A DNA stretch of 33,573 nucleotides from an uncultured virus (IMG/VR IMGVR_UViG_3300023205_000110) (IMGVR_UViG_3300023205_000110), one strand, 5' to 3'; shown: positions 3,879-25,767, counted from the stretch's first letter. A program made the numbers and translations. Notes: generated from the letters alone by a model not told the origin.

Positions 3879-4301
3879 TTATTTAACTAGTAAACAAACA
3901 ACAAAAGCGATAGCGCAAACAGCACCACCGCTTACCAAATATCTATTCTTACGTTTAATACGTTCAATAGACTTATTTAAATTATCATTTACTTTATTAC
4001 TATTATCAAGATTATTTTGTAAAGTTTCAACTTCTTTATAAAGAGCATTATATTTAATCTTATGGAGATTAATTATACTATCTTGTTCGTTAATAATATC
4101 TTTATAAAGTTTAGCTTTAATAATTTTAGTATTAGCAATCTTAATCATATTAATAGGAACAAGAACAGTTGTATCAGTAGCGTTGACTCCCCGTGGAGGA
4201 TGCACTACATTATCAATCTCACTCTGACACCAACTTCTTGAATAACTCCCAAGTAGCACTGTCATTAAGACTAATAACTTTATCTTCAATATCTTTTTCA
4301 T
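3879..4301 (-). CDS. Spanin-like protein (signal/lipobox-like N-terminus, coiled coil, C-terminal TM helix)
   Basis: Hydrophobic N-terminus followed by Cys, heptad-rich middle, C-terminal YLVSGGAVCAIAFVVCLLVK. Overlaps the 3' end of 4219-4497, next to the endolysin. Confidence 0.55.
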   Translation of the reverse strand: MKKILKIKLLVLMTVLLGSYSRSWCQSEIDNVVHPPRGVNATDTTVLVPINMIKIANTKIIKAKLYKDIINEQDSIINLHKIKYNALYKEVETLQNNLDNSNKVNDNLNKSIERIKRKNRYLVSGGAVCAIAFVVCLLVK

Positions 4302-4497
4302 GTTCTTTAAGTTTATAAACTATACTTTCTCTTTCAGTTATAACTAACTGTATAGAATCAATCCGAACATGATTAATAGCAGTGTCACTTTTATTATATG
4401 AATTGGCTTCTACACTAAAACGACTTATTGATAAATACAGAGTAACACATAAATTAATAATCGCTATTATAAATATTGCTATTAACATCTTCTTCAT
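4219..4497 (-). CDS. Membrane-anchored coiled-coil protein, i-spanin-like
   Basis: N-terminal TM (MLIAIFIIAIINLCVTLYLSI) followed by helical sequence. Immediately downstream of the endolysin. Confidence 0.55.
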   Translation of the reverse strand: MKKMLIAIFIIAIINLCVTLYLSISRFSVEANSYNKSDTAINHVRIDSIQLVITERESIVYKLKEHEKDIEDKVISLNDSATWELFKKLVSE

Positions 4498-4516
4498 AAT
4501 TCTATACAGTATTAAG

Positions 4517-4945
4517 TTAATCTTTTATTTCTATAAGTTTATTAAGCAAATCAAGGTTCCATCTACCAGTTTCTTTAAGTCCAAGAACTCTTTGAGCCAT
4601 CTTGATAGCTGCAACTTGACCACAATTCACGTTAGTATCAAATAATTGTTCAGCAACTCTCTGACTATTAAAATCATCAAGTTCAAATACATCCCAATAA
4701 CCTATTTTATACTTTTCCCAAACAAGTTTCTGAAGCTGAACGTCATTATCAAGCTTAGACTTAAACTCTTTACTACCAACAGTATAATGTTTCTTATAAG
4801 AATCAATCATAGTCCAACCTTGCCAAGTAGGATTATATTTACGACTGATACCTCTATAAGTTTCTCCACCAGCATCATCTTTATCGTTTACATAACCACC
4901 TTCTTTAATAGATAGTTTTTTAAAAGCATCTCCAAAGTAAGCCAT
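4517..4945 (-). CDS. Endolysin, glycoside hydrolase family 108
   Basis: EGGYVNDKDDAGGETYRGIS matches the GH108 EGGY(V/S)NxxxDxGGxTxxGI signature. FDTNVNCG motif also present. Confidence 0.9.
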   Translation of the reverse strand: MAYFGDAFKKLSIKEGGYVNDKDDAGGETYRGISRKYNPTWQGWTMIDSYKKHYTVGSKEFKSKLDNDVQLQKLVWEKYKIGYWDVFELDDFNSQRVAEQLFDTNVNCGQVAAIKMAQRVLGLKETGRWNLDLLNKLIEIKD

Positions 4946-4948
4946 AAT

Positions 4949-5146
4949 TTAATTTATATAAGGATTAGTACAATATCTAAAACAATCAACAGCGTCATAA
5001 TATTCATCTTCATCAAATTCTTTAATTGTAACCCAAAACCAAAGAACTTTAATTTGAACTTTATAAATCACAAATTCAAAGTCATCACCAATATGATGTT
5101 CATCACCAATTAATCTTATATTTTTTCTACGATTAATAATATACAT
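4949..5146 (-). CDS. Hypothetical protein
   Basis: 65-aa ORF packed within 3-4 nt of both neighbours. Confidence 0.65.
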   Translation of the reverse strand: MYIINRRKNIRLIGDEHHIGDDFEFVIYKVQIKVLWFWVTIKEFDEDEYYDAVDCFRYCTNPYIN

Positions 5147-5149
5147 AAC

Positions 5150-5500
5150 TTATTCTTCAAGAGTTCTACGAATCCATGAACGTAAAAATTTGATATTATT
5201 TCCTTTACCAGCAATATCATTATAATATTTAATACGTTCAAGTTTATATTTAGCTATAAAATAATCAGCACTAATAGTAGTATCAGATTTATAAGCATTA
5301 AGAGAATCTTGAGTTCTACGAAGCAATTCTTTAGTTAAAACTAATTCATTAACAGCAGTAGAATCAGTAACAGGAACATAACGAATTTCAGGAACTGGAG
5401 TAATACGTTTAGTACATCCACTAGATAAACAAATAGCAAATATAACTAAAACAATAAATCCAATAATTACTCCAATTAAATTATCTTTATTCAATTTCAT
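5150..5500 (-). CDS. Putative lipoprotein, possibly o-spanin-like
   Basis: Hydrophobic signal ending in the lipobox-like LSSGC. Located in the lysis cassette. Confidence 0.55.
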   Translation of the reverse strand: MKLNKDNLIGVIIGFIVLVIFAICLSSGCTKRITPVPEIRYVPVTDSTAVNELVLTKELLRRTQDSLNAYKSDTTISADYFIAKYKLERIKYYNDIAGKGNNIKFLRSWIRRTLEE

Positions 5501-6504
5501 ATAGCAAGTTTAAATTGAGTTTGAACACCACTAGCTTTAATTTGTAATTCTCTATCTTTAAGAACTTTATTAATATCATCACGTAGATAATTCATAGTAA
5601 AGAATTTAGTAGTTTCAACAGGATTTTCTTTAATATGATAAAGACCATCAGAAAATCTTTTTGGCATACCATATTCATTAAGTTCAAAATCACTATCAAT
5701 ATGACATAACCAAATACCTTTAATAGTTAAACCAAGTATATATTCAACAGCAAAAGCATACATACTAAGTTGAAGATTATATATAGCACCATTACAATTA
5801 GGAAGATGATTAAGAGGAGCTAAAAGTCGTTCATCTTTATCAACCCAAACATTAGTTTGTTGTGCAGGTTTAACTGTTTTATCTTTCTTATAATAACCAC
5901 TACTAAATCTTAATCCATCACGATTTGTTTTCCAATCACCTACAACAGCACAATTAGTATCTTCATTAACTAGAAGAATATCAATAGTTCCACTAATTAA
6001 CCAATCTATAAGAAACATACCAATCTCACTATAAATCTTATATCCTCTTTCAGTGTACATTTTAAACGCATCATAAATAAGAGGATAACGATTATTAGTA
6101 AGTTCAATAAAATCTTTAAGATTAAGTAATTTATAACTAGCACCAAAATTTGGTATATCAGCAATAGTAACCATTACACCATCTTCACGTTTATCAAGAT
6201 AATTAATAGCTTGTTGAAACATAGATGCTCCTTTAACGCCATCTTCAAGACCATTATGAGTATTAGTTCCACGTTCACAAGCTTCTTTAGTAATAGTTGA
6301 CCATTGTTCTTCTAGTTTCTTCTCACTTATTCCTAATTCTTTAGACTTCTTTCTCAACCAATAGTTCTTATCGAACTTTGGAGCATAATTATGAAGGATA
6401 GTAGTAGTTGAAATATAATCATTACCTAGACTATCATTATACTTATGTTCTTCTTCATGAAAAATAAGTCTAATATCATTATATCTTTTATCTTTAAGTT
6501 CCAT
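5497..6504 (-). CDS. PD-(D/E)XK exonuclease family protein
   Basis: FHEEEHKY, ISTTTIL, RGTNTH, SGTIDILL, GDWKTN and YNLQLSMY motifs. Likely start is ATG 6504 (MELKDKRY) rather than the GTG inside the upstream hairpin. Confidence 0.8.
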   Translation of the reverse strand: MELKDKRYNDIRLIFHEEEHKYNDSLGNDYISTTTILHNYAPKFDKNYWLRKKSKELGISEKKLEEQWSTITKEACERGTNTHNGLEDGVKGASMFQQAINYLDKREDGVMVTIADIPNFGASYKLLNLKDFIELTNNRYPLIYDAFKMYTERGYKIYSEIGMFLIDWLISGTIDILLVNEDTNCAVVGDWKTNRDGLRFSSGYYKKDKTVKPAQQTNVWVDKDERLLAPLNHLPNCNGAIYNLQLSMYAFAVEYILGLTIKGIWLCHIDSDFELNEYGMPKRFSDGLYHIKENPVETTKFFTMNYLRDDINKVLKDRELQIKASGVQTQFKLAI

Positions 6505-6601
6505 ATTAATATTATTAAGTTCAACACTAGCTTGGACCCGCTTCGGCACTACGTGCCTACGCTAGACTCCCCGTGGAGGAATGGAGTAGATTAGCATCAG
6601 C

Positions 6602-7201
6602 TTATTCCTCAATCATACTACTAGTAATTTCAACTCCACCTCTACCAGCAACATTCTCTTGTTCATACAGAAGATTTTCTTCAGCTACATTAAGAGCTTT
6701 AATCGTGTTTGGAAACTGATTAGCTAAATCATTAATTTGTTTCATATAACCAATAACAACTGGAACATCTTCTAGACTAGCACCATCAGATAACTTGTCA
6801 TTCAACAATTCATTTAACTTGCTAGCAGCTAGAGCAACATTATGAATACCACGCTTAATATTAAGTACAGCTTCCATACCTGCACCAGCTTTTTGATTAT
6901 AATATCTTTTAATAAGTTTCCAAACAAGAATATCAGGTTGATAATTTTTAGGTAAATCAAAGTTTTCAATAGCTTTCTTAAGAGCTTCTTTTTCACTAAG
7001 ACCTTCTTGTAGACACGGACCTTTAGGGTCACCAAGATAATAAATAACTCCAACTTCTTTAACATACATCTCTTTATTAGGAGATTTATCTCTAGTATAA
7101 AGAAGACTAACATCTCTATCAAGAAGTTGTTTAAGTGTAGGAGCTTTTGGCATACCAGTTTCATCTATGGTCAGCATCCAATCCAATTCCAAACCGTTCA
7201 T
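6602..7201 (-). CDS. Hypothetical phage protein
   Basis: 199-aa ORF in an operon-like arrangement. Confidence 0.75.
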   Translation of the reverse strand: MNGLELDWMLTIDETGMPKAPTLKQLLDRDVSLLYTRDKSPNKEMYVKEVGVIYYLGDPKGPCLQEGLSEKEALKKAIENFDLPKNYQPDILVWKLIKRYYNQKAGAGMEAVLNIKRGIHNVALAASKLNELLNDKLSDGASLEDVPVVIGYMKQINDLANQFPNTIKALNVAEENLLYEQENVAGRGGVEITSSMIEE

Positions 7202-7727
7202 ATATTTCTTCTACTTCTTCATCAAATTCAATAATTTCAAGTTTACCCATAGCATATAGCCAAAGATTAGCATAAGCAGCACTATGTTTTTTACTTAGTT
7301 TAATCCAAATAGGAAGAAGTTTCTTTTTAAACTTATGTTCAGTCTTAATCTTTTCTTCTTCTTCATAATGTTTTTGCTTTTCTTCTTCCATAACTTTAGC
7401 AGTATATTCTTTATACTCTTCTCTAGTCATAGTTTTTCTAGCTTCTTTAAAGTCTTTATAATGACTAATAAGTTTGGAACGATACCAATTCTTTTGAATA
7501 GTGCCAATATGAGGAATAGCAACACATTTATCTTTTCGTATATTAATACTAGCTTCTTTTTCAAGATTTTCAATAATAGATTTACAAAGTATTCTATCAT
7601 CACCTTGAAATCCAATATCATCTAATATATTATTTATATCTTTATAGATAAGAATATAATCATCATCAAAATCTTCTTGAGAACTAGTATTAGCAATATT
7701 AAAACTAGTATTAGTCTTAAAATCCAT
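7161..7727 (-). CDS. Hypothetical protein, weak HU/IHF-like segment
   Basis: 188 aa. SIIENLEKEASINIRKDKCVAIPHIGTIQ resembles HU helix 2 plus the beta-strand motif. Function uncertain. Confidence 0.6.
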   Translation of the reverse strand: MDFKTNTSFNIANTSSQEDFDDDYILIYKDINNILDDIGFQGDDRILCKSIIENLEKEASINIRKDKCVAIPHIGTIQKNWYRSKLISHYKDFKEARKTMTREEYKEYTAKVMEEEKQKHYEEEEKIKTEHKFKKKLLPIWIKLSKKHSAAYANLWLYAMGKLEIIEFDEEVEEIYERFGIGLDADHR

Positions 7728-7741
7728 AATTGAAAGTTTAA

Positions 7742-7825
7742 GAACTCTTCTTAGATTACTACTATAAACAAGAACACAAGTACCTATAATTTTAAATTAT
7801 ACATAAGTAGTTCTAAGAAGAGTTC
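7742..7825. repeat. Intergenic inverted repeat with 14-bp perfect arms
   Basis: GAACTCTTCTTAGA (7742-7755) / TCTAAGAAGAGTTC (7812-7825). Confidence 0.75.
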
Positions 7826-7844
7826 GATTATTTAGACGAAATGG

Positions 7845-8384
7845 CTAATTAGCTTTTTCAGCAGAATGATAAACAAAAGGATTAATAGCTTTATGTTTAT
7901 CAGTAATAGCAGCTCTTAAATCATTAATAGCTATAACTTTAAATTCAACAAACCAAACTTTTTGTCCTTTTGTATATCCTTGATTTTGTCCAAAAGTACC
8001 AACAGTAATAGAACGAGTTAGTTCAGTATCATTAGTAATATACTTATTAACAAATTGAGGACTAAGAACATTATGTTTAAGATAAAGATGATAGCCACGT
8101 TCAAGAGTAGAACGGTCAATAATAATCTTATCCATTTGATTCATACCAATAAGTTCAGCATCTTCTTTACTAATCTTAGCAATAATTGGCATAACCTCAA
8201 CTGTACTAACTTTATTATTAATAACACCAAACAAACTTTCATTTTGGCAAAGAGCAACAATACAATAATGTTTAGCAATAACTACATTAGTAAGAATAGC
8301 GTCAAGTGCTTCACTTGTTATTTCGCTAATGTCAGTAGGTATTTGAATACCAAAATCTTTAAATTTACTTTCAACTTTAATCAT
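7845..8384 (-). CDS. Hypothetical phage protein
   Basis: 179-aa ORF with protein-like composition. Confidence 0.8.
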   Translation of the reverse strand: MIKVESKFKDFGIQIPTDISEITSEALDAILTNVVIAKHYCIVALCQNESLFGVINNKVSTVEVMPIIAKISKEDAELIGMNQMDKIIIDRSTLERGYHLYLKHNVLSPQFVNKYITNDTELTRSITVGTFGQNQGYTKGQKVWFVEFKVIAINDLRAAITDKHKAINPFVYHSAEKAN

Positions 8385-8392
8385 AACCTAAA

Positions 8393-8533
8393 TTATTTAG
8401 TTTTAATAATACTATCAATACCAATATTTCCAAGTTTAAGTTTACTAGGAACTTTAACTTCTTTTTTATTCCTTTCACCACTATGAAATTCTCTAGTGTA
8501 TTTAGGTTTAGTTTCACTTTTATCTTTACCCAT
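8393..8533 (-). CDS. Small basic protein (46 aa), first gene of the leftward operon
   Basis: Read manually as MGKDKSETKPKYTREFHSGERNKKEVKVPSKLKLGNIGIDSIIKTK. Lies between a promoter and the 7845-8384 gene. Confidence 0.6.
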   Translation of the reverse strand: MGKDKSETKPKYTREFHSGERNKKEVKVPSKLKLGNIGIDSIIKTK

Positions 8534-8550
8534 AACTTAATTGTTTTTAG

Positions 8551-8581
8551 CAAATGTAAGAGTTTGAATGAATCTACCAAG
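8551..8581 (-). promoter_or_regulatory. Bacteroidota-type sigma70 promoter (leftward)
   Basis: -7 element TACATTTG (8558-8551) with CTTG 19 nt upstream. Consensus is TTTG-N19-21-TAnnTTTG. Confidence 0.6.
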
Positions 8582-8919
8582 AGAAAAACTATTTTTAACA
8601 TTTCAATCGTAGAGGATTATATGATTATAAATATGCAAGTCATACTCCCCGTGGAGGATGGAGATGAGTTAGGCTTAATCATATTAGTATTAATGATATT
8701 AATAGAGATAATGATAATGATTATAGTATTGATTAACTTGATGTGATTGATACTGATTGTATTCGTCCTCTACGGGGAGTTGAGCGGAGAGCGAAGCTCG
8801 GAGCGGGTCACAGCGAATCTATTAATGCTGATTATATTAAATATTATATATAATATATATCTATATAGATACTATTGCTAACTTATAATTACTTGATTAT
8901 CAATAAGTTACAAATACTA

Positions 8920-8990
8920 ATTTATACCATACATGGAATAGATTTCGCTATTTATTTGCTATATTTATACCATACATGGAATAGATTTCG
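8920..8990 (+). repeat. 28-bp perfect direct repeat pair (iteron/operator-like) upstream of the RepL-like gene
   Basis: ATTTATACCATACATGGAATAGATTTCG at 8920-8947 and 8963-8990. Confidence 0.9.
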
Positions 8991-9041
8991 ACATTTCCTA
9001 GAGTAATATATTTTTATGTTAAACTTAATACTATTATTGTT

Positions 9042-9698
9042 ATGACTTTTAAAGAAGATTTTAAACCTACTAAAGTTTATAACAAACTTGTTAATGATGT
9101 TTGTTATAATGCTGATTGCTTAGAAGAATTTGAAAAACAAAGACTTGTTGTTGCTAATCCTTTTAGTTATAATAAAAATACCAGAACTGGTATAGTTGCT
9201 GAATTTGATAATGGTTATCATCTTAGTAAAGAAGTTGGTATTAAACGTAATTTTGTTACTATTAGTATGAGAGTTTGGGATATAATAAGAAAAAATAGAT
9301 ATGCTGTTATTATTTCTTTTATTGGTTATATTGCTGAAAATATTAAATTTAATAGTAATGTTATTTATATTTCTCATGATTTAATTAAAGGTTATGGTTT
9401 AGTTAAGCCTAATTATAGAGATTATTATAACGCTATTGCTTATCTTGAAGATGAAAATATTATTAAAAGAACTAATATTAGAAATATTTATGTTGTTAAT
9501 CCTATTTACATATTTAGAGGTGATGTTAACAAACTTATTAATATTATTAGTGAAGCTAAATTAATAAAAACTTTTGATGATAAAGATAGACTTATAGTTG
9601 ATAAATTTATTTTATTTAAAAATGATACTGATAAAGGTATTGTAATTGCGAATAAAGATTTGTATGCAACTGAAGTTATAGATATTGGTGAGGACTGA
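9042..9698 (+). CDS. RepL-like (plasmid replication initiator family) winged-helix protein
   Basis: HTH-like YYNAIAYLEDENIIKR followed by the RepL-type YVVNPIYIFRG motif. Confidence 0.7.
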   Translation: MTFKEDFKPTKVYNKLVNDVCYNADCLEEFEKQRLVVANPFSYNKNTRTGIVAEFDNGYHLSKEVGIKRNFVTISMRVWDIIRKNRYAVIISFIGYIAENIKFNSNVIYISHDLIKGYGLVKPNYRDYYNAIAYLEDENIIKRTNIRNIYVVNPIYIFRGDVNKLINIISEAKLIKTFDDKDRLIVDKFILFKNDTDKGIVIANKDLYATEVIDIGED

Positions 9699-10016
9699 GT
9701 TAAATATAATAGTAATGATAGTAAGGATAATGACGAAAATACTGAAGATAAAAATTATGAAGATAATAGTAATGTATATTAATGTTTTGATAATGATAGT
9801 AAGAATGTTGAAGATGATAGTAAAAGTGATAGTATTGAAAATAATGTATATTAATGTTTTGGTGAGGCTAGTGAGTATAAGGGGTGGGTCATTAAACTCG
9901 TCTTGACTACCCCCGTCAAGTTCTAGGAGAAAGTAAAGTTCTCGCTCTCATTATCAACATTAAATACATTGAGATTATTCATCTCATTATATTACTAACT
10001 ATTAATACCAATCATT

Positions 10017-10172
10017 ATGAAAACAAACAAACCATTGTTGTTAGTTGCCATCATACTGATGATGCTAGCTATCATACTAGCATTGAAAGTAGAGCCAACT
10101 AGTGATGAACAAATTACTGCTGTTGTATTTGGAATACTATCGGCTATTGTTAGTTATCTTAGTAGAGATTAA
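10017..10172 (+). CDS. Small two-TM membrane protein (51 aa)
   Basis: Read manually as MKTNKPLLLVAIILMMLAIILALKVEPTSDEQITAVVFGILSAIVSYLSRD. Confidence 0.65.
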   Translation: MKTNKPLLLVAIILMMLAIILALKVEPTSDEQITAVVFGILSAIVSYLSRD

Positions 10173-10279
10173 TCTCTACTAGATGATGTTGCTCATTATC
10201 AACATTAAATACTTTGCAGTTGAAACGAAAACAACTGTCAGTAATGCTACTGATTAGCGTAATTAAATACTTAATAGTC

Positions 10280-11062
10280 ATGCCAGACGTTAAAGATTTA
10301 GCACAAGCTGCACAAGGTGCTGCTGCTCCTGAGAGTGTTAATGTAGTTGAACCAACTACTAGTGTTAATCAACCTGTTCAACCTACTGTTGATACAGATA
10401 ACAAACCTGTTCAATCTACTGTTGATACAGATAACCAAAGTTCTGCGCAAGTGGAAACCATTGATGATGTTGTTAGACGCATCTGTACTGATGGTCATAG
10501 TTATGTAATGACTACTGTCATTACTAATATTGATTGTCAAGAACGTACAGGTCGTAATGGCAAGTCTTATCTCAATGCGTTTGTTACTATTGCTAGTCCT
10601 GTCAAAGGTGCTCAAAGTATGCCTGATGGTACACATCGAATGGGTATGCTTGGTGCTGTTCAGATGCCATTCAATCAGATACTGCTTGTAATGCGCAAAG
10701 ACAAGTTCTACGGTAGATTTGTCAACTATGTTGGCGAGGCTGCTGAAGCTGGCTTTGCTAGTATGTATCTGACTGGTGTTGCTGTCAAAGTTCTTTGCCA
10801 GTTTGTACCTGCTGGCGTACAAGACCGTAATCCATTTACTCGTAAAGACAATCTTTACAATGTTGTGGATTATGATAGATATGTATATCATATTGTAGGT
10901 ATCGAACAGCCTGCTGACCCTGTTCTTGTTGGTGCATATAATGTGCTTATCAAGCAGATTATGGAGGACGCTCGTGCTGCCATTGCTGCCAAGCGTGAGG
11001 CTAAAGCTAAAGCGGCTAGTTTTGTTGCTACTGCAATGAGTGATGACGATTTGCCATTCTAA
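10280..11062 (+). CDS. ssb: Single-stranded DNA-binding protein (crAss-type)
   Basis: Acidic C-terminal tail SDDDLPF and a beta-rich core. Likely start is ATG 10280. Contains a 33-bp in-frame tandem duplication at 10371-10435. Confidence 0.75.
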   Translation: MPDVKDLAQAAQGAAAPESVNVVEPTTSVNQPVQPTVDTDNKPVQSTVDTDNQSSAQVETIDDVVRRICTDGHSYVMTTVITNIDCQERTGRNGKSYLNAFVTIASPVKGAQSMPDGTHRMGMLGAVQMPFNQILLVMRKDKFYGRFVNYVGEAAEAGFASMYLTGVAVKVLCQFVPAGVQDRNPFTRKDNLYNVVDYDRYVYHIVGIEQPADPVLVGAYNVLIKQIMEDARAAIAAKREAKAKAASFVATAMSDDDLPF

Positions 11063-11069
11063 TGAACAT

Positions 11070-11099
11070 AGTGCTACTGACCTTCGGGTTGGTAGCACT
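11070..11099 (+). terminator. UUCG-capped hairpin after ssb
   Basis: AGTGCTACTGACC-TTCG-GGTTGGTAGCACT. No clear U-tract, so it may be a stabilising or processing hairpin instead. Confidence 0.55.
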
Positions 11100-11266
11100 G
11101 ATGTTATCAACAATAGTTTTGTTGATGCTGTTGCTAGTGTTCAACATGGAAATGCTCATCATCAACATTAAATAGATTGCAGCAAACGAACTTAACAGTC
11201 TGATAAGACTTATCAACCAAGACCTAGCTGCAAGTTCTGATAAGTCTTATCCTAATATTAAACATC

Positions 11267-11572
11267 ATGAAAGTACATCGTATTATTACTACTATTGAAG
11301 TTGAGAATGATAATTCTATTACTTCTGTTGAACTTACTAAACTTCATCCTACTAGTGATTGTATTCTTCTTGCTATTACTAATATTACTACTAATGGTAA
11401 TGCTGAAGATATAACAAAAATATATGATAGTGTTAATAAGAGCAGACTTGGTATTGCTGGTAAATTAAAAGGTATCGCTCGTATTATTGATAATAGTCTT
11501 GATGGCCATGATTATAATGTAGTTACTGATGATAATTCTACTAATGAAATTAATGATGATTTACTCCTATAA
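11267..11572 (+). CDS. Hypothetical protein
   Basis: 101-aa ORF with an A-rich leader and an acidic tail. Confidence 0.7.
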   Translation: MKVHRIITTIEVENDNSITSVELTKLHPTSDCILLAITNITTNGNAEDITKIYDSVNKSRLGIAGKLKGIARIIDNSLDGHDYNVVTDDNSTNEINDDLLL

Positions 11573-11619
11573 CATTTTGTTATACTGATATTGGTCATGG
11601 AGATTTACTCTCATAACAA

Positions 11620-12060
11620 AAAGTTATAGAGGTGAAATTAGAGGTGACGAGAGGTATTGAATGTGGAGAAAGAGGATATGGAGATGAAAGTGGTGAATGT
11701 GGATTTCGTGGAGAATGAAATGGTGGAGATGGATGTGGTTCAAATAGGGTTAAATTGAGGTTGAATGTGGAGATGAGAGTGAGTTTGGTAGTGGTGAATG
11801 TGGAATTGAATGTGGAGATGGTGATGCTAAAGAGACTAGTCCCACTGCCATTCTTCCTAATCCTCTTCATCCTATTAATAACACTCCTAATAATCAATCT
11901 AAACCTATTGTTCCAACTCCTTCTCTTTCTCTCCTATAACTTCTCTTTCTCTCCTATAACTTCTCGTTATAACTCCATAACTTTTCATTATAACCACTAT
12001 AACTATTAGTTATACTATCATCTTCTCAATCTCATTCATTATAACCTTTGGTTATACCAT
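11620..12060. repeat. Low-complexity purine-rich then pyrimidine-rich tract
   Basis: Several GAATGTGGA copies in 11659-11820, then a CT-rich run with TTCTCTTTCTCTCCTATAAC twice (11921-11960). Confidence 0.75.
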
Positions 12061-12463
12061 CATCATCAACATTAGTTTTGACATCAGCTTTAACTCTAGT
12101 TTCGTCATGAACTTTATCGTTAAGCCCAGTATTAAGACTAGTCCTAACAGTATTATCAAGTCTAATAAGACTTCTAGTCATAATGACCAATAGCATTAGT
12201 TCTAGCTAATAATAGCACTATTAATACTATCAGTATTATAATTACTATTAATACTAGTCATGCTAATATTACTGGTGGTATTACTAATGATATTCTTAAT
12301 ATTCTTGATATTACTGATTCTCTTTATACTAATGATACTCTTGATACTATTGATATTTATTATACTCGTGGTAAATTAATTCCTATTGCTATAATGATTT
12401 TAGTTATTTTAATATAGCTATTGATTATTAGTTAGAATTATAGTATAAATAAATTATAATATA

Positions 12464-12494
12464 TTTGGAGTATTATATTTAATTATTATATTTG
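12464..12494 (+). promoter_or_regulatory. Bacteroidota-type sigma70 promoter
   Basis: TTTG (12464-12467), 19 nt, TATATTTG (12487-12494), upstream of ORF 12559. Confidence 0.75.
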
Positions 12495-12558
12495 TCGTGT
12501 TGTTCAGTAGAGTAATATTGCTACTGATAATAATATTAATCTTAAACTTATAAGTGTT

Positions 12559-13185
12559 ATGGTAAATTTTGATAATGTTACTAGTAATGTTCAATCTAAG
12601 CCTAGAAAGAAAACTATGGCTGAAAGTTTAGAAGAAGCTAAACAAGAAGGTAAACTTGTTGTTCCTGAAGAAGATACACAAGTTAATGCTGTTGTTAGTA
12701 GTGAAACTGTTCAGCCTAAGAATAAAGCTAGGAAGAAGAAACAAAGTAAAGTTCGTAAACAGGAAGAACAAACTACTGTTGTTAGTCAAGCTAATGAAGA
12801 TAATGATTTTAAAGATGCTAAGACTGATAAACGTGGTGTTCCTGTTGGGATTAATGTTCCTCAACATATTCTTGATGTAGTTTGTATTGTTAAATTCAAT
12901 GCTGCATTTAGACGTCATACTTCTCTTAATATTCTTCATGCTCTTGAAGATGATGGAAGAATATGTAATTCTAAAGGTGCTTATGTTGACTTCTTATGGA
13001 ATAAGTTTAGAGTTACTGCTGATGGTGGACTTCGTAGAGAATATAGATATACAGATGATTTATTCATTGATGCTTTAGTTAAAGCTCATGCTGATGTTGC
13101 TAGTGATAGTCAGCGAGTTATTGGTATTATGATTGATACTGAAACTGAACTTCATAAAAAGAATAAAGATTCTGAGGCTAGTTAA
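12559..13185 (+). CDS. Hypothetical protein
   Basis: 208 aa with a charged, disordered N-terminal half. Confidence 0.8.
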   Translation: MVNFDNVTSNVQSKPRKKTMAESLEEAKQEGKLVVPEEDTQVNAVVSSETVQPKNKARKKKQSKVRKQEEQTTVVSQANEDNDFKDAKTDKRGVPVGINVPQHILDVVCIVKFNAAFRRHTSLNILHALEDDGRICNSKGAYVDFLWNKFRVTADGGLRREYRYTDDLFIDALVKAHADVASDSQRVIGIMIDTETELHKKNKDSEAS

Positions 13186-13350
13186 GTTTGTAGTATAGAC
13201 TCCCCGTAGAGGATGGATAGTGCTGTTGAGCTTGTTAAAGCTAATTCTCATCTGCTTGCCATTTTTATCCATTTTGTTTATTGGGTTTGTTATAGTTAAC
13301 ACGTTGATGATAACTATCCTCTACTCGGAGTTTATTTTATATATAAAGAT

Positions 13351-13530
13351 ATGGAAAGAACTGATATTTATTTTGTTGAAGATGATACATATTTCAATAA
13401 TAATGTTGAAGGTGTTGAAATTCATGCAGAATGCCTAAGTCAAGATTTTGACGATATTGCTTGGGAACCAATAGTTAACGATAGTCCTATTGTTGACCCT
13501 GAAAATGATGTTTTTGGTTATTATGATTAA
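13351..13530 (+). CDS. Small, very acidic protein (59 aa)
   Basis: Read manually as MERTDIYFVEDDTYFNNNVEGVEIHAECLSQDFDDIAWEPIVNDSPIVDPENDVFGYYD. Ends 12 nt before the next gene. Confidence 0.7.
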   Translation: MERTDIYFVEDDTYFNNNVEGVEIHAECLSQDFDDIAWEPIVNDSPIVDPENDVFGYYD

Positions 13531-13542
13531 ATAAATAAAATT

Positions 13543-14115
13543 ATGGAAAATATTAATATTAAAGTTATTCTTGATGAAGTTTTTGGTAAATCTTGTGATA
13601 GTATTACTTGTGATACCTGTAAATATAAAGAAGATTGTAATCTTCTTAATAAATTCATTAATGATATTAAAGATAAAGGTTTATCTCCAGACCAATATGT
13701 TAGAGGTTTAGCTTTATTTGTATATGTTCTTAAAGAACAAAAATATATTAATGATTTTGGTAAAACTCAAGAAGATATTATTAAACTTGTTACTGAAGAT
13801 GGATTTGAACTTGATTGGCTTATTAATCGTTGGGATAGTATAATTGAAGATAAAGATATTCTTAAACCTATTATTGCTGTTTTTCCTAAATATGCTAAAG
13901 ATATGATTATTAATATTGTTGAAGCTAATACTAAAATTAATCATTTTATAAGTCAACATATTGTTGATAGTTCTTATAAAGAACGTAATGAAATTATTAA
14001 AATGGTTAATCAATCTGTTGATAATAATAAACAAGAGAATAAGTTTAAGAATGTTAGTGATGATGAAATTTATGCTGAACTTAAACGTAGAAAAGCAAAT
14101 AAATCTGCTAAATAA
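13543..14115 (+). CDS. Hypothetical protein with an N-terminal Cys cluster
   Basis: 190 aa containing CDSITCDTCKYKEDC. Confidence 0.8.
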   Translation: MENINIKVILDEVFGKSCDSITCDTCKYKEDCNLLNKFINDIKDKGLSPDQYVRGLALFVYVLKEQKYINDFGKTQEDIIKLVTEDGFELDWLINRWDSIIEDKDILKPIIAVFPKYAKDMIINIVEANTKINHFISQHIVDSSYKERNEIIKMVNQSVDNNKQENKFKNVSDDEIYAELKRRKANKSAK

Positions 14116-14457
14116 TCCCACATAATTTTGATTGTATTTCTAACACTATTGTCTGTGAAGATAATAGTATTATTTCACTTGCTGATGATGGAGGAATTGA
14201 ACTCCGAAACTATGATATTGTTATTATCCGTTTTAATTTCTAATTGTAACTTTTGTAATAGTACGGTCTGTGAAGATAGTGCTATTAATATTTATCATAG
14301 TCCAAGTGTTATATGTCATATTTGATTTGGTGTTAATAATGTTATTATTGATTGTGAAATTAGTAATAACAATGTCTGTGTCAAACATTTCGTTTTATAT
14401 GATTTCGTATTTGTAGTTTTGCCTAGCATTGTCTGTGAAGATAGTGCTAGGCTTTTT
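14116..14457 (+). ncRNA. Structured RNA array: four GUGA-tetraloop hairpins with U-rich spacers
   Basis: Hairpins at 14145-14168, 14256-14287, 14340-14371 and 14421-14452. Stems differ in sequence but keep pairing, with G-U wobbles on the + strand. The last is followed by TTTTT. Confidence 0.75.
14176..14308 (+). ncRNA. Type I hammerhead ribozyme
   Basis: Stem I CACUUG/CAAGUG, core CUGAUGA plus one extra U, stem II GGAG/CUCC, GAAA, stem III CUAUGAUA/UAUCAUAG, GUC cleavage triplet at 14300-14302. Confidence 0.85.
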
Positions 14458-14493
14458 AGTATGTATATTATTAACTTTAAATATATAATTAAA

Positions 14494-14856
14494 ATGGATA
14501 ATTATGATTCTTTTATTTTTGATGGTCTATTAGATAGATACATTGAAGAACAAGCTAAGTTTAAAAAAGGACAAGTAGTTTATATGGAATATACTTATCA
14601 ATATCATAATCAAACTAAGCTTGGTGTTTGTGTTGGTATTGTAACCGAAGTTGGAATTACTAAAATCGAACGTACAGTAGGTAATAATAAATATATTAAT
14701 TATCCTATTGTATATACTGTAACTCATGCTAAAGGTGTTAGTCGTTGTGTTAGTGAATGTAAACTTGGTTCTGTATCTGAACATATTCTTAAAGAACGTC
14801 TTAAACGTGATGGTAAGAATAATGAACAAAATGCAGAGCCTACTAGTAATGACTAA
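14494..14856 (+). CDS. Hypothetical protein (SH3/KOW-like pattern)
   Basis: Likely start is ATG 14494 (MDNYDSF). Contains KFKKGQVVYM...GIVTEV. Confidence 0.75.
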   Translation: MDNYDSFIFDGLLDRYIEEQAKFKKGQVVYMEYTYQYHNQTKLGVCVGIVTEVGITKIERTVGNNKYINYPIVYTVTHAKGVSRCVSECKLGSVSEHILKERLKRDGKNNEQNAEPTSND

Positions 14857-14880
14857 CTATTTATGTTCATAATACATTCA

Positions 14881-14973
14881 TAGATACGGTTCTTTTGCTC
14901 TCTGTTGAATTTTCATATATAATCTGATTAATCTATCACGATTAATATTGAGTTCAATACAGGGCAAAAGAAC
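14881..14973 (+). repeat. Intergenic element copy 1 (long hairpin with core TGATTAATCTATCACGAT)
   Basis: Arms GTTCTTTTGC (14889) / GCAAAAGAAC (ending 14973). The core recurs at 29636-29653. Confidence 0.7.
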
Positions 14974-15015
14974 TAGCTAATAAATGTTAAACTAAAAATT
15001 TAATACAGTTTTATT

Positions 15016-15588
15016 ATGAATTATATTACTTATAAACAAATTGATGGTACTATTACATCTGGATTTAAAGTTAAACTTTATGATATAGTTACTTTGAATA
15101 CTGGCTATTGGAAAGATAAACTTGCTATTGTTCTATATATTAATGAGGATAAAAAACAAATTAAAGTTCGTATTATTGAATGTGGTATGAACTTAACTCT
15201 TAAAGTTAAAGATGTTCAATTTGTTAATCATAATAATAGAACTGCTGCTCGTTCTTATATTGATTTATGTAATAAACTATCTAAAACCTTTCGTGATAAA
15301 TATACTGATAAACAGTATATAAAAGATAATTGGTTTACTGATAAGTTTATTATTAATGATATAACTGCTGATACTATTGCTAAAGGTATTGGTCAATATA
15401 TTACTAATACTGATAGTGATAGATATTCTGTTAGTGCTATTATGTGGCTTAGTGATATTAAAGATTATATAGATGCTTTACTTAAATATGGTGATTTTGA
15501 TTTTGTTGCTAAAGCATTTAAAATTTATAATATTACTGATACTAGATTTGAACTTATTCGTAAACTTTATCATTATTTCTATGATTGA
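15016..15588 (+). CDS. Hypothetical protein with a KOW-like N-terminal domain
   Basis: YDIVTLNTGYWKDKLAIVLYINEDKKQIKV fits the KOW pattern. Confidence 0.7.
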   Translation: MNYITYKQIDGTITSGFKVKLYDIVTLNTGYWKDKLAIVLYINEDKKQIKVRIIECGMNLTLKVKDVQFVNHNNRTAARSYIDLCNKLSKTFRDKYTDKQYIKDNWFTDKFIINDITADTIAKGIGQYITNTDSDRYSVSAIMWLSDIKDYIDALLKYGDFDFVAKAFKIYNITDTRFELIRKLYHYFYD

Positions 15589-15859
15589 AAATGTTTCTCA
15601 TTTTATACTTGGTATGATATTTGGTTTATCTGTATATCTTTTTATAAGAATTACCATTGTTAGTAAAAAACTAGATAGACTTATTAGAGATATTAATGAT
15701 ACTCAAAATTGGATTAGAAAGATTCAAATTGATATTTGCGATATTAATAAACAATGGGAAGTTAAAAGAGATAGAGATAGAAATAGACTAGATAGAATTG
15801 AAGATAGGATTGGTAAACTTGCTAGTGATTTTAATGATATTATTAGAAAGAAAGTTTAA
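15581..15859 (+). CDS. Membrane-anchored coiled-coil protein
   Basis: Likely start is ATG 15581, overlapping the previous stop. TM segment FILGMIFGLSVYLFI. Confidence 0.7.
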   Translation: MIENVSHFILGMIFGLSVYLFIRITIVSKKLDRLIRDINDTQNWIRKIQIDICDINKQWEVKRDRDRNRLDRIEDRIGKLASDFNDIIRKKV

Positions 15860-15954
15860 TGGCTAGCTTGCTTCCATCCTCTACGGGGAGTCGCCACGGA
15901 GCGTAGCGTAGTGGCTCTACTAATCTTAATGTTATTAATTTAAATACTATTGAT

Positions 15955-16143
15955 ATGAGTGAAAGTGTTGATTTGATATTACTTATTACTATTTGTTTTA
16001 TTATATTAATTTCTCATGTTAGAGCTAATTATCTTATTTCTAATGGATATGACAGTGGTGAGGAACTTAATAAGGCTATTGTAAGAGATATTGCTATTGT
16101 TATAATTTATCTTTTTATTAAATATATAATTATTAATCTTTAA
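15955..16143 (+). CDS. Small two-TM membrane protein
   Basis: 62 aa with two hydrophobic stretches. Confidence 0.55.
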   Translation: MSESVDLILLITICFIILISHVRANYLISNGYDSGEELNKAIVRDIAIVIIYLFIKYIIINL

Positions 16144-16158
16144 AAATGTAAAGTACTT

Positions 16159-16491
16159 ATGAAAAAGTATGATGAAGTTTCTGTTGTTCGTCAACTTAAC
16201 AATGTTGACGCTGTTATTGGAATCAATCCTGCTAGTAAAGTTATTAAAGTAGCTAAAAATAGTTCTATTGGTAATGGAACTAGTGGTAAGATTGATTTTC
16301 TTTCTCATTATTGTGGTTATCATGTTGAGATTGTTGATGTTATTCAACAACAAAAAGAACGTGATGAAGAAATTGCTGCTAAGAAAGCTGCTAAAAAGGC
16401 TGCTCGTAAAGCTAAATTTGCAGAGGATAATACTTTTAAAAGTATTACTCGTGCTGTTGATAAACGTATGCGTACTATTAAAAGAAAGTAG
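16159..16491 (+). CDS. Hypothetical protein with an Ala/Lys-rich helix
   Basis: 110 aa containing AAKKAAKKAARK. Confidence 0.8.
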   Translation: MKKYDEVSVVRQLNNVDAVIGINPASKVIKVAKNSSIGNGTSGKIDFLSHYCGYHVEIVDVIQQQKERDEEIAAKKAAKKAARKAKFAEDNTFKSITRAVDKRMRTIKRK

Positions 16492-16497
16492 TATGCT

Positions 16498-16968
16498 ATG
16501 GTTAGCTTTAAATTCTCATTTGGAGTTGTAGGTAAATCCAAAGAGAAAGGAATAGTCAATAAATATGTTATTATAGTTGCCAAATGTGAAGGTATTATTA
16601 GATATATTGATGGTACTTATAAAGTAGAATACAATGGCAAACTATATAGCATTACAGGTGAAAGTTACAGAACTAAAGGAAAGAAAGTTGTTTATGCTCG
16701 TCGATTAGATAAATATAATCATAGAATTAAAATTATAAGAGATAGTGAAAATAGAAAAACTGTTGACACTAGATTTTATATTCCTTTTGCTGCTGGACTT
16801 ATAGCTAAAGGTAAAATTGTTAAAATGCCTTTTGCTAAGGAATTGTTTCATATTACTACGTGTTATAATCGTGGTGATAGTGAATCTACTATTTTAGCTT
16901 TTCAAGAATGGAAAGAATATGAAGATAAAGTTAAAAATAATCTTATTGATGTAAACAACGAATTGTAA
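16498..16968 (+). CDS. Hypothetical basic protein
   Basis: 156 aa. Its stop overlaps the helicase start (TAATG). Confidence 0.75.
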   Translation: MVSFKFSFGVVGKSKEKGIVNKYVIIVAKCEGIIRYIDGTYKVEYNGKLYSITGESYRTKGKKVVYARRLDKYNHRIKIIRDSENRKTVDTRFYIPFAAGLIAKGKIVKMPFAKELFHITTCYNRGDSESTILAFQEWKEYEDKVKNNLIDVNNEL

Positions 16969-18428
16969 TGATTGGTAATCTTAATATTGCTAATAGTAAT
17001 AGAAAAGATACTAACATTAAGTTTACTAAAGACCAAGAAATAGCTGTGCATGAACTTATTGAGTTTCTTGCACAGCCTTGGGATGATAAGAAATATATTA
17101 ATGCTCTTTGCGGTGCTGGAGGTACAGGTAAGACATTTGTTATTAAATATGTTATTAATAATTGCAAATGGTCTGGTGGTGTTATAGGTTGTGCTGCTCC
17201 TACACATAAAGCTTGTAGAGTTCTTAGTAATTCTATTGGTGGAAAAGAAGTTAATACTATTCAATCATTATTTGGTTTTAGACTTGATGTTAATATTGAA
17301 AATTTTGACCCTGAAAATCCTGCCTTTAATCCTGTTGGAAAAGATAAACTAGATGGTCTTAAAGTTTTAATTATTGATGAAGCTTCTATGCTTAATGCTA
17401 AACTTGTTAAGTATATTAGTAATAAATGTAAGAAGCTTCAAATTAAAGTTATAATGCTTGGTGACTCTAGTCAGCTTCCACCTGTTAATGAGAAAACTAG
17501 TCAAGCTTTTCTTATTGCTAGTAATACTTATTATCTTAAAGAAGTTGTACGACAAGGAGATAATAATCCTATTAGTAAACTTCTTAAACTTCTTCGAGAA
17601 GATATAGATAATAAGAATGGATGGAAGTTTCTTGATTATATATCTAAAAATAGACAAGATTATAATGAAGAAACTAAAGGATTTTATGTTTGTGGTCAAA
17701 CTGAATTTTCTGATTTAATTGATACTTGTTTTAATGATGAAGAATATACTAAAAATATTGATTTGTATCGTATTATAGCTTATACTAATAGTCGTGTTGC
17801 ACAATGGAATAACCATGTAAGACATATGATTATTCAAGATGCTGATAAGAGCCTTATTACTCGTAATGATTTAATAATGAGTTATACTACTGTTGTTAAT
17901 GTTTTTAATGATATTATTATAAACAATAGTGAAGAATATATTGTTAAAGATATTGTTGATACAGTTGATAATGATTATGAGTTTAAAGGATTTCTTATTA
18001 AGTTTCAAGCTATTCATGGTGGTGCTATAACTCAACCTTTATTTGTTATTGACCATTATGATAACTATACATTTCAAATGTATTATAAGAAATTGACTAG
18101 TCTTATTGATGATGCTAAAAAAGCTAGTAGTTCTGAACGTGGAAGTAAATGGAAACAGTATTTTGATTTTAAACGTAAATATCTTATCGCTTCTAATATT
18201 ACGAATAGTAATGGTAGGATTTTATTTAGTAGAGATTTAGATTATGGTTTTGCAATTACTTCTCATAGAGCACAAGGTTCTACTTATAAAAATGTATTTG
18301 TAGATATTAACGATATGATTTATGATAAATATGGTCATCCTTATACTAATAGAGATGAAATGCTTCGTAGATTATATGTTGCTTGTTCTCGTGCTAGTAA
18401 TCAATTAGTATTATCTTATGGCAAGTAA
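16968..18428 (+). CDS. Dda/RecD-like SF1B DNA helicase
   Basis: GAGGTGKT, APTHKA, IIDEASM, GDSSQLPPV, VVRQ, AITSHRAQGST and LYVACSRA motifs. Confidence 0.93.
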   Translation: MIGNLNIANSNRKDTNIKFTKDQEIAVHELIEFLAQPWDDKKYINALCGAGGTGKTFVIKYVINNCKWSGGVIGCAAPTHKACRVLSNSIGGKEVNTIQSLFGFRLDVNIENFDPENPAFNPVGKDKLDGLKVLIIDEASMLNAKLVKYISNKCKKLQIKVIMLGDSSQLPPVNEKTSQAFLIASNTYYLKEVVRQGDNNPISKLLKLLREDIDNKNGWKFLDYISKNRQDYNEETKGFYVCGQTEFSDLIDTCFNDEEYTKNIDLYRIIAYTNSRVAQWNNHVRHMIIQDADKSLITRNDLIMSYTTVVNVFNDIIINNSEEYIVKDIVDTVDNDYEFKGFLIKFQAIHGGAITQPLFVIDHYDNYTFQMYYKKLTSLIDDAKKASSSERGSKWKQYFDFKRKYLIASNITNSNGRILFSRDLDYGFAITSHRAQGSTYKNVFVDINDMIYDKYGHPYTNRDEMLRRLYVACSRASNQLVLSYGK

Positions 18429-21292: not shown

Positions 21293-22674
21293 AAAATATA
21301 GTTGAAGAATCATATAGTAAACTTATTAATAAATGGGGTTCTAAAGATTATAAAGGTATTGGAACTATCCATTGTGTTCAACCTCTTGATTATTCTGAAA
21401 TTATAAGTAGAATTATTAGTCTTATGAGAAATAAGAATGATAATATTAAAATACTTATTGTTACAGATAATTGGAAAAGAAGAACAGAAATTGTTGATGG
21501 TCTTAAAAATCATAATATAAATATAGATACTATTAATATTCTTACTCATACTTATGTTAATAGTAGATATAATTATAGTTATGATATTTCTATTGTTGTT
21601 GGAGTTAATGAATGGAATCTTTCTTGTAATACAGTTTTTAATCATGCTAGATTTAAACTTATGATTATAACTAAAGATACTATTGATACTGCCAAGCTAA
21701 AAGAAATTTATACTAATATTCCACCTATTAATGATAATATAAGTTCTAGTGGTATTAATGCTATGCGGGCTTTACTCCCCGTAGAGGAACACAGAGAGCA
21801 GATTTTATTTACTAGTCAAGATGATATTACTAATTATGATAAATATACTGAATTTATTACTCAGACTATTCAAGTATTTGGTAATCTTGATAATATTAAA
21901 TGTGCTCGAAATGGTACTCAAGATGGACGTAGTGCTATTCAATATATTACAGAAATAGCTGAATATAATGGATGGAGTGCTGATATAGATATGACTAATC
22001 CTTTTAGTAAACAAATTGATGAATGTTATAATCCTCTTGTTCTTGCTGAACGAGTTAAGACTTTTTATAATATTGTTCGTGAACGTATGCTTATATGTTC
22101 TGATAATGTTTGTAAGCTAGAAAGAATAGTTGAAATTATTAAAGATAATCCTGATAAACGATTTCTTATTATTAGTAAGAGAGGTGAATATGCTGCTACT
22201 GTAACTAAATATATTAATGATAAATTAGGTGAAATTTGTGGTGATTATCATGATAAAATTGAGGATAAAGTTCTAGTTGATAGTAATGGTATTCCTGTTT
22301 TGTACAAGTCTGGAAGCAAGAAAGGGACTGCTCGTATAATCAAATCTAAGGCTATTTCCACGCTGAATTTGAAGTCTTTTAATGATGGCTTATTAAGAGT
22401 ATTATCTATAAAAAATAATTCAACTGACAGCCTAGAAACAAGCGTAGACGAATGGATTTTAACCTCACCTTTATGTGATACAATAGATGAACTTATTTAT
22501 CGTTATAATAATGTTAATTGTAGTCAATCAAAACTTAAAGTACATAAACTTTATATAGCTGGTACTATTGAGGAAGCAAGTCTTAAAAAGGAAAAGTTAT
22601 CGGCTAACCATGAAGTTATACAGAATGTTAATTCTGATATTAGTGCTCAAAATTTTGATGATATTGTTTGCTAG
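21289..22674 (+). CDS. SF2 helicase-like protein, apparently degenerate
   Basis: Size, position and C-terminal features (KLERIVEII, FLIIS, LKSFNDG, HKLYIAGTIEE) suggest SF2. No Walker A or DExH motif is visible. Confidence 0.6.
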   Translation: MKNIVEESYSKLINKWGSKDYKGIGTIHCVQPLDYSEIISRIISLMRNKNDNIKILIVTDNWKRRTEIVDGLKNHNINIDTINILTHTYVNSRYNYSYDISIVVGVNEWNLSCNTVFNHARFKLMIITKDTIDTAKLKEIYTNIPPINDNISSSGINAMRALLPVEEHREQILFTSQDDITNYDKYTEFITQTIQVFGNLDNIKCARNGTQDGRSAIQYITEIAEYNGWSADIDMTNPFSKQIDECYNPLVLAERVKTFYNIVRERMLICSDNVCKLERIVEIIKDNPDKRFLIISKRGEYAATVTKYINDKLGEICGDYHDKIEDKVLVDSNGIPVLYKSGSKKGTARIIKSKAISTLNLKSFNDGLLRVLSIKNNSTDSLETSVDEWILTSPLCDTIDELIYRYNNVNCSQSKLKVHKLYIAGTIEEASLKKEKLSANHEVIQNVNSDISAQNFDDIVC

Positions 22675-25695: not shown

Positions 25696-25725
25696 AAAAT
25701 TAAAGTTAGTTAAATAGTTGTATGT

Positions 25726-25767
25726 AAGAGGATTGGGTACTATTTTAGTACCTAGTCCTCTTTTTTT
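25726..25767 (+). terminator. Intrinsic terminator
   Basis: AAGAGGATTGGGTACT...AGTACCTAGTCCTCTT followed by a T-run. Confidence 0.8.

Follow-up and report, generated by a model that had tools for sequence, protein, structure and literature searches.

Three small hairpins with G-N-A (GNA) loops are found in a 33,573-nucleotide (nt) stretch of DNA from an uncultured virus (IMG/VR IMGVR_UViG_3300023205_000110), which is referred to here, at its full length, as the window. Each hairpin stands just 3′ of a copy of a short dispersed repeat, called here the word, and the locus therefore raises the question of what the hairpins are and why they are joined to the word. An earlier note, made from the sequence alone, held that they share one architecture and suggested that they fold in single-stranded DNA (ssDNA) as signals for priming, nicking or the virion RNA polymerase.

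Positions 6000 to 16500 of the window are 96.1% identical to Carjivirus communis BK010471 and 95.8% identical, over 98% of the length, to CrAssphage sp. O-152; judged by these alignments, the window is the prototype human-gut crAssphage (Carjivirus communis). crAssphage is a 97-kb double-stranded-DNA (dsDNA) phage with a genome G+C content of 29%, and it is among the most abundant viruses of the human gut. Whole-genome counts were made on BK010471, whose position 10 corresponds approximately to window position 9837, and on the nearest genome, G001.

A closed family of seven hairpin modules fused to the word

The three hairpin strings and coordinates given in the earlier note proved to be exact. 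Hairpin 1 (6535 to 6562, minus strand) reads GC(6562-6561)-GTA-GGCAC-GTA-GTGCC-GAA-GC(6541-6540) and is followed by a GGGTC tail (6539-6535); hairpin 2 (8784 to 8809, plus strand) reads GC(8784-8785)-GGA-GAGC-GAA-GCTC-GGA-GC(8803-8804), also with a GGGTC tail (8805-8809); and hairpin 3 (15893 to 15915, plus strand) reads GCCAC(15893-15897)-GGA-GC-GTA-GC-GTA-GTGGC(15911-15915), its inner part being a GCGTAGC mini-hairpin. Their attachment to the dispersed repeat was likewise borne out, each hairpin standing 1 to 3 nt 3′ of ACGGGGAGT. The corresponding word cores lie at 6566 to 6580 on the minus strand (site 1, TCCTCCACGGGGAGT), between the gp84 and gp83 homologues and matching the BK010471 copy 93664-; at 8766 to 8780 on the plus strand (site 2), 260 nt upstream of repL; and at 15877 to 15891 on the plus strand (site 3), 18 nt past the stop codon of the gp11 homologue, with the gp12 homologue next.

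For a genome-wide scan of both strands, the architecture was defined as an outer and an inner stem, separated on each side by a GNA and closed by a GNA or GNNA loop, in which all pairs are Watson-Crick and four or more are G-C. BK010471 contained seven matches, all of which begin 4 to 6 nt past the 3′ end of a same-strand word, and none was found elsewhere in the genome. Each of 20 whole-genome dinucleotide shuffles gave 0 matches, and the architecture appeared in 0, 0 and 1 of 5000 local dinucleotide shuffles of sites 1, 2 and 3, respectively. The seven loci are the three window sites and four others named by their BK010471 (BK) position and strand, BK 28074-, 28172+, 44950- (inside gp45) and 58724- (inside gp50); on the BK010471 map the modules stand at 6.0, 28.1, 28.2, 44.9, 58.7, 93.7 and 95.9 kb. 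The two modules that lie inside genes, gp45 and gp50, are in frame.

In each module, a GNA/GNA purine internal loop is topped by a C-GNA-G triloop, or by GAAA in one module, and in three of the seven the inner and outer stems are only 2 bp long. All seven fall within the sequence definition of a DNA mini-hairpin (GCGNAGC / GCGNNAGC), that is, G-C-G-N(N)-A-G-C or C-GNA-G with a C:G closing pair: GCGTAGC or GCGAAGC is present exactly in site 3, BK 28172+ and BK 44950-, and C-GTA-G, C-GAA-G or C-GAAA-G is present in the other four. The unpaired G-N-A triplets occur only on the strand of the word; the complement would carry T-N-C.

A lack of compensatory changes in relatives would, according to the earlier note, have spoken against its interpretation; such changes are present among strains. 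The variant set was drawn from two IMG/VR scans anchored on the end of the word plus the first letters of the module and from one scan whose anchor was the flank upstream of site 3; the window, BK010471 and G001 were added to these. The scans anchored on the first letters of the module are blind to alleles that have no hairpin. Of 115 distinct flank sequences at the seven loci, 113 can be parsed into the complete architecture and 2 have a one-base deletion or insertion; none of the 44 distinct flanks of words without a hairpin (uncapped words) parses in this way. At BK 28074-, a GAGTGC/GCACTC stem is exchanged for GAGTAC/GTACTC, with one G.T intermediate, and hairpin 2 occurs with three alternative inner stem-loops (GAGC-GAA-GCTC, GGAC-GAAA-GTCC and GGC-GAA-GCC), keeping the architecture in 21/21 distinct variants. 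Hairpin 1 keeps it in 28 of 29 distinct strain variants, and hairpin 3 is identical in all 17 crAssphage loci fetched by the hairpin-independent anchor, which also fetched two further loci that are unrelated DNA. Besides these stem exchanges, the modules vary at the middle letter of GNA (GTA/GGA, GAA/GGA and GTA/GCA), and the G and the A of every GNA are invariant in 113/113 parsed variants.

These data confirm the common architecture claimed for the three hairpins, which is one fold with compensatory variation among strains. It is concluded that the three window hairpins are members of a closed family, which comprises seven strand-specific mini-hairpin modules fused to the word. We found no earlier description in print of hairpins fused to the word: our literature search gave no account of either the word or the hairpins, and among the exact-string matches listed, none was on phages.

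One IMG/VR contig of 10,684 nt follows BK010471 from 28313 to 28017 and then from 93682 to 93536, with the switch falling within word plus module. This contig reflects either recombination between two same-orientation capped words or an assembly chimera over approximately 25 shared bases.

Distribution of the word and of its hairpins

The word is much more frequent than the hairpins, which cap 7 of its 32 copies in Carjivirus. With at most one mismatch allowed, the window contains 13 matches to ACGGGGAGT; the expected number is 0.58, and none of 100 shuffles gave more than 3. A longer word is common to 12 of the 13, the exception being the match at 23835. At the same stringency, TCCTCYACGGGGRGT has 32 copies in BK010471 (plus strand, 14; minus strand, 18), with 21 located within annotated genes and 11 intergenic. 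Genome G001 also has 32 word matches, all on its single crAssphage contig, and the reversed control pattern gave 0. Alignment of the 32 copies revealed conservation from -4 to about +20, with the consensus yTCCA-TCCTCYACGGGGRGT-MTA-NCC (~26 nt). Fourteen of the 21 G+C-rich islands of BK010471 are at words; the other 7 have neither a word nor a hairpin of this architecture.

The copies are also regularly placed. The coefficient of variation of the per-strand gaps between words is 0.31 to 0.59 in four genomes, compared to approximately 0.9 for random placement, and the spacing is more even than random in 8/8 strand sets, with P values from <0.0002 to 0.016. Relative to local genes, the word is sense in 19/32 copies and antisense in 13/32; among the 21 intragenic copies, 11 are sense and 10 are antisense. 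The intragenic sense readings are SSTGG/S, ILYGGS and HP(L/P)RGV, and the antisense readings are (L/P)PVE(D/E) and TP(R/L)(G/R)G. Five of the six frames are used, and the sixth holds a stop codon when Y is T. A protein motif was considered as the source of the repeat and was rejected, because the word stands in five frames and in both orientations.

Several uncapped copies lie in the window. On the minus strand, they are found at 4186 to 4200, at the 5′ end of the gp78 homologue; at 8644 to 8658, as the partner of the site 2 word in a back-to-back pair at the divergent junction; at 13199 to 13213, 14 nt past the stop codon of the gp06 homologue and antisense to gp06; at 21774 to 21788, antisense in an SNF2 ATPase gene (read LPVEE); and at 28166 to 28180, antisense in the DNA ligase gene (read PPVED). 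On the plus strand, copies lie at 20180 to 20194, in the family-B DNA polymerase gene (read SSTGG), and at 26637 to 26651, in the primase gene (read ILYGGS, with PLRGV at the same place in Delmidovirus). Another back-to-back pair stands between the gp31 and gp32 homologues, at 32905 to 32919 (minus) and 32934 to 32948 (plus). In addition, a truncated copy with only the first half of the word (TCCTCTACG, followed by unrelated letters) is present at 8606 to 8618 on the minus strand, 28 nt downstream of the copy at 8644 to 8658.

The word extends to other crAss-like genera. The core word has 29 matches in cr11 (Delmidovirus), 28 to 29 in cr110 (Delmidovirus) and 20 to 29 in cr3 (Diorhovirus), with 0 to 1 in reversed controls; there are 0 to 1 matches in Whopevirus ctbg and 0 in cr271. 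Fourteen of the 21 intragenic places could be aligned in each relative, and the word is present at the same residue and in the same orientation in 8/14 in cr11, 7/14 in cr110, 8/14 in cr3 and 0/14 in ctbg. The place in the primase gene (window 26637 to 26651) is kept in three genera, in a different frame in Delmidovirus. Word copies have also been gained, since BK 30489+, in the gp44 RNA polymerase gene (outside the window), is a clean insertion of 5 to 7 residues (NTPRGGE) relative to all four relatives, which is a recent gain in an essential gene. Whopevirus (MH616963, a mouse crAss-like phage) has a dispersed word of its own, a pyrimidine tract followed by TTACGGGCCAG, with 20 matches on both strands, none of which has a hairpin. 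Based on these data, it is concluded that the word is a DNA-level, strand-specific signal under selection.

The hairpins have a narrower distribution. The pattern search in Crassvirales genomes that the earlier note had proposed returned the seven modules in Carjivirus and two variant hairpins in cr3; however, it returned none in cr11 or cr110. The cr3 hairpins follow the word at 44004 (GCAGGGC-GAA-GCCCTGC), downstream of the RNA polymerase gene at the convergent junction, and the word at 77145 (GCAC-GA-GC-GAA-GC-GA-GTGC), between the gp86 and gp85 homologues. Both differ slightly in style from the Carjivirus modules, stand in the same register to the word and are sense to the adjacent genes. 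The word places in gp45 and gp50 are hairpin free in Delmidovirus, and that in gp50 is also hairpin free in Diorhovirus, so the hairpins arrived there later than the word. We conclude that the hairpins are a lineage-specific, optional add-on and that the word functions without them.

A possible start signal on single-stranded DNA and its alternatives

A review (PMC13037366) reports that d(GCGAAGC) and d(GCGAAAGC) melt at 76.5°C and that r(GCGAAAGC) melts at 39°C. The modules are built from this GCGNAGC-type motif, whose stability is much greater in DNA than in RNA, in line with the earlier note; modules with 2-bp stems would be marginal as RNA. An ssDNA fold is therefore probable and is favored over an RNA fold, because the GNA triplets are on the strand of the word only, because of this gap in melting temperature and the 2-bp stems, and because one module is antisense and a separate terminator appears to lie near another.

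We postulate, tentatively and with rather less than even confidence, that the modules are ssDNA caps that would keep the adjacent word exposed for the start of RNA or primer synthesis. The proposal is made because the known cases of the motif (G4, RSF1010 ssiA and N4) all mark a start of RNA synthesis on ssDNA, because the layout is alike, and because the phage has both a primase and a polymerase of a type that transcribes ssDNA. A module would fold when its strand is single stranded or when it is extruded from the supercoiled duplex. Once folded, it would hold the adjacent word open and free of single-strand-binding protein, which binds such mini-hairpins poorly (PMC13037366). A phage factor would then start RNA synthesis at the exposed word, most plausibly to make a replication primer. 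One candidate for this factor is the phage's own primase, encoded at 25718 to 27013 on the plus strand (PHROG 12622 'DNA primase', E = 5.4e-167; no Pfam match), which may be the reader of the word. Another is the RNA polymerase: its homologue, the virion RNA polymerase of the crAss-like phage phi14:2, transcribes single-stranded but not double-stranded DNA (bioRxiv 10.1101/2020.03.07.982082). The capped words may be sites that are strong or embedded in duplex DNA, an example being the word pair at the predicted repL origin, and the 25 uncapped words would be read on DNA that has already been unwound by the fork.

Site 2 stands in an origin-like region. Across the window, the gene layout runs from portal and terminase genes on the minus strand, through the divergent junction, to a replication module on the plus strand. 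The junction itself contains, in order, the word pair (8644 to 8658, minus, and 8766 to 8780, plus), hairpin 2, a TA-rich tract, two direct repeats and repL. The TA-rich tract (approximately 8820 to 8870; G+C content of 0.21 to 0.24 in 100-nt windows) adjoins hairpin 2 and is a candidate unwinding region. The direct repeats (8920 to 8996, plus) are 34 nt long (8920-8953 and 8963-8996), 94% alike, 43 nt apart, iteron-like and just upstream of repL, and both are present in BK010471. By sequence, the repeats and the TA-rich tract look like initiator-binding repeats and an unwinding region. The repL gene (9042 to 9698, plus), annotated as gp88, encodes a plasmid-type replication initiator (Pfam RepL, E = 2.4e-5, 24.3 bits against a cutoff of 20.3). 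A preprint (PMC10983915) predicts a replication origin directly upstream of repL and reports the highest long-read coverage nearby; the term "hairpin" has 0 occurrences in its main text.

A back-to-back word pair is present at the divergent junction in BK, cr11, cr110 and cr3, and in the site 2 pair one of the two words is capped. BK, cr11 and cr110 have a second such pair close to the convergent junction; the BK pair is capped at both words and stands about 0.5 kb upstream of a second repL gene. Downstream of the third pair, gp33 is a DUF932 protein and not a recognizable initiator.

The small genes flanking the sites gave no Pfam domain (13 proteins scanned), and a tRNA scan of the window gave no match. 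An unannotated frame of 87 codons (8483 to 8746, plus), for which Pfam gave no match, stops 20 nt short of the site 2 word; on the opposite strand, a frame of 74 codons overlaps it.

The interpretation given in the earlier note is upheld in part. The ssDNA-type motif, its restriction to the strand of the word and the position of site 2 within the origin region predicted by the preprint (PMC10983915) agree with it; the hairpins are optional, however, and a promoter for gene expression fits poorly, since by N4 geometry the RNA would be antisense at 6/7 sites.

Several further observations weigh against the proposal of a start signal. The hairpins are dispensable for the word, with 25/32 Carjivirus words uncapped, and no G+C-rich hairpin was found at any word of cr11 or cr110 (29 words each). 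Sites 1 and 3 have no obvious origin context, and the gp45 and gp50 modules are inside genes. The preference of modules for intergenic DNA (5/7 modules compared to 11/32 words; P of approximately 0.03) and for junction pairs (3/7 modules among 4/32 words; P of approximately 0.03) was tested only post hoc. The gp50 locus and 3 distinct strain variants of site 2 carry one identical 22-nt module, GC GGA GGAC GAAA GTCC GGA GC, which suggests copying between loci, as would also be expected of a selfish element. Furthermore, nearest-neighbor folding of 54- to 58-nt stretches, as DNA and as RNA and on both strands, gave no excess stability over shuffles (z of -0.76 to +1.61); standard thermodynamic models are stated to miss the stability of GCGNAGC mini-hairpins (PMC13037366). 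Because the folding energies show no excess, the architecture is upheld on pattern statistics and strain variation. Finally, the modules are sense to local genes in 6/7 cases, the exception being BK 28074-. A sense-strand bias of the modules as such was considered and dropped, since 6/7 compared to 19/32 sense words gave a hypergeometric P of approximately 0.12 (hand arithmetic).

The alternative that survives best, although we consider it unlikely, is that the module is a selfish or by-product palindromic cassette, either inserted or made by break repair or template switching at a fixed position in the 3′ tail of the word, that spreads between words by conversion, brings the phage no benefit and needs its fold for its own copying. 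The optional occurrence of the hairpins is in keeping with such a cassette (7/32 words in Carjivirus, two variants for the 29 words of cr3 and no hairpin in cr11 and cr110), as is their later arrival at the gp45 and gp50 words, which are hairpin free in other genera. The identical 22-nt module at the gp50 locus and site 2 implies transfer between loci, and in the 10,684-nt contig, the flank of a first capped word runs into the module and flank of a second; taken together, they suggest that modules or flanks have been exchanged between word copies. By eye, the short G(G)GTC or GTTC after the module also resembles the end of the word. However, no presence/absence polymorphism was seen, the site 3 hairpin being present in 17/17 loci and the other scans being blind to empty sites, and no new hairpin locus was found among the fetched loci, every capped word with crAssphage flanks mapping to the same seven. 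In addition, no transposase-like (Y1/HUH) gene is among the 88 annotated features (13 proteins were scanned with Pfam), and the invariance of the G and A of every GNA in 113 parsed variants also speaks against a cassette. If this alternative nevertheless holds, the modules would represent a rare hairpin cassette aimed at a conserved phage signal.

It is less probable still that word and hairpin act in mRNA, as a 3′-end protector, a processing site or a terminator. This explanation would account for the sense orientation of 6/7 modules and of both cr3 hairpins, and for the position of the three window sites, which begin 18 to 26 nt past the stop codon of a sense frame; moreover, as RNA, the word folds into a 7-bp hairpin with G-U pairs beside the module. 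However, 13/32 words and the BK 28074- module are antisense, and two modules stand within long genes, in which a terminator would do harm. None of the modules is followed by a T-run, the tails at the three sites being GGGTCCAAGC, GGGTCACAGC and TCTACTAATC, and none of the three hairpins is among the 4 terminator-like sites detected between 4000 and 17000 (2.8 expected). Approximately 30 nt past the BK 28172+ module (BK010471 ~28230 to 28290), a conventional hairpin with a T-run is visible by eye, and if it is a real terminator, then the GNA module there is not. GNA triloops on 2-bp stems are weak as RNA, at 39°C compared to 76.5°C (PMC13037366), and Rfam 15 gave 0 matches at E values up to 1 over the whole window.

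Least credible is an N4-style promoter, an extruded hairpin at which the injected virion RNA polymerase would start gene transcription: the C-GNA-G loop and its closing pair are what N4 requires (PMC4496689), and the crAss-like virion polymerase prefers single-stranded templates, with no early-promoter motif found for it in phi14:2 (bioRxiv 10.1101/2020.03.07.982082), but the crAss polymerase is of an unrelated two-barrel type (annotation and the same preprint), N4 transcription starts 5′ of the hairpin on the template strand (PMC4496689), a geometry that here would give antisense RNA at 6/7 sites, the sites lie across all gene modules and are not limited to the first-injected end, and Delmidovirus has no such hairpins. 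A promoter scan from 4000 to 17000 gave 91 promoter-like sites compared to 90.4 expected and was uninformative.

The start-signal proposal can also be stated more broadly, in a form that we consider possible but doubtful. The crAss-like phages may hard-wire their strand starts, with the evenly spaced, strand-specific G+C-rich word serving as both template and landing site for a primase, or for an ssDNA-dependent RNA polymerase that acts as a primase; the versions capped by mini-hairpins, among them the pair next to repL, would be origin grade and able to fire from the duplex, and the G+C-rich block would give a stable primer. The hairpins are the first feature of the word to bear on mechanism, and they turn a DNA word into a testable proposal of a single-strand start signal; C. 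communis can be grown in liquid culture (PMC10983915).

Comparison with known systems

The precedents cited in the earlier note hold good, and mini-hairpins are present at the G4 priming site, in RSF1010 ssiA and at the N4 early promoters (PMC13037366 and PMC4496689). The N4 early promoters are DNA hairpins whose 5- to 7-bp stem ends in a C:G closing pair below a loop of three bases, G-N-A, with a sheared G:A pair; they are extruded by supercoiling and stabilized by single-strand-binding protein (PMC4496689 and PMC13037366). The loop and the C:G closing pair are present in 7/7 modules, whose inner stems are 2 to 6 bp long and interrupted by the GNA/GNA loop. Unlike N4, where three promoters at the first-injected end are served by a T7-like polymerase, the crAssphage sites are dispersed and the polymerase is of the unrelated two-barrel type.

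Repetitive extragenic palindromic (REP) elements, IS200/IS605-derived repeats, Rickettsia palindromic elements and the GC clusters of yeast mitochondria are G+C-rich imperfect hairpins in A+T-rich genomes that stand strand specifically 3′ of a short target, sometimes in frame. The modules differ from these elements in number, with only seven copies, whose loci are the same in every strain seen; no cognate transposase is annotated, and the target is itself a conserved, functional-looking word.

The modules are also reminiscent of the complementary-strand origins of G4, St-1 and alpha3, which have a GCGAAAGC-type mini-hairpin at the place of priming (PMC13037366). Those, however, are ssDNA phages with one origin that is used by a host primase, whereas crAssphage is a dsDNA phage with many sites.

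In RSF1010 ssiA, a hairpin topped by a C-GAA-G mini-hairpin lies 3′ of a specific single-stranded stretch; the primase RepB′ binds to this stretch and to the foot of the hairpin and does not touch the cap (PMC13037366). Unlike RSF1010 (IncQ), crAssphage has 32 evenly spaced words on both strands, mostly intragenic and with 7 capped; its modules contain a GNA/GNA internal loop, and its primase is of another family (PHROG 12622). The order of the elements is nevertheless alike, since a specific word is followed after 4 to 6 nt by a capped module in 7/7 cases. In the RSF1010 origin, ssiA and ssiB form two opposite-strand signals next to initiator-binding repeats; the back-to-back pair of crAssphage words beside the TA-rich tract, the 34-nt repeats and repL, of which one word is capped, may be comparable, and an origin is predicted there.

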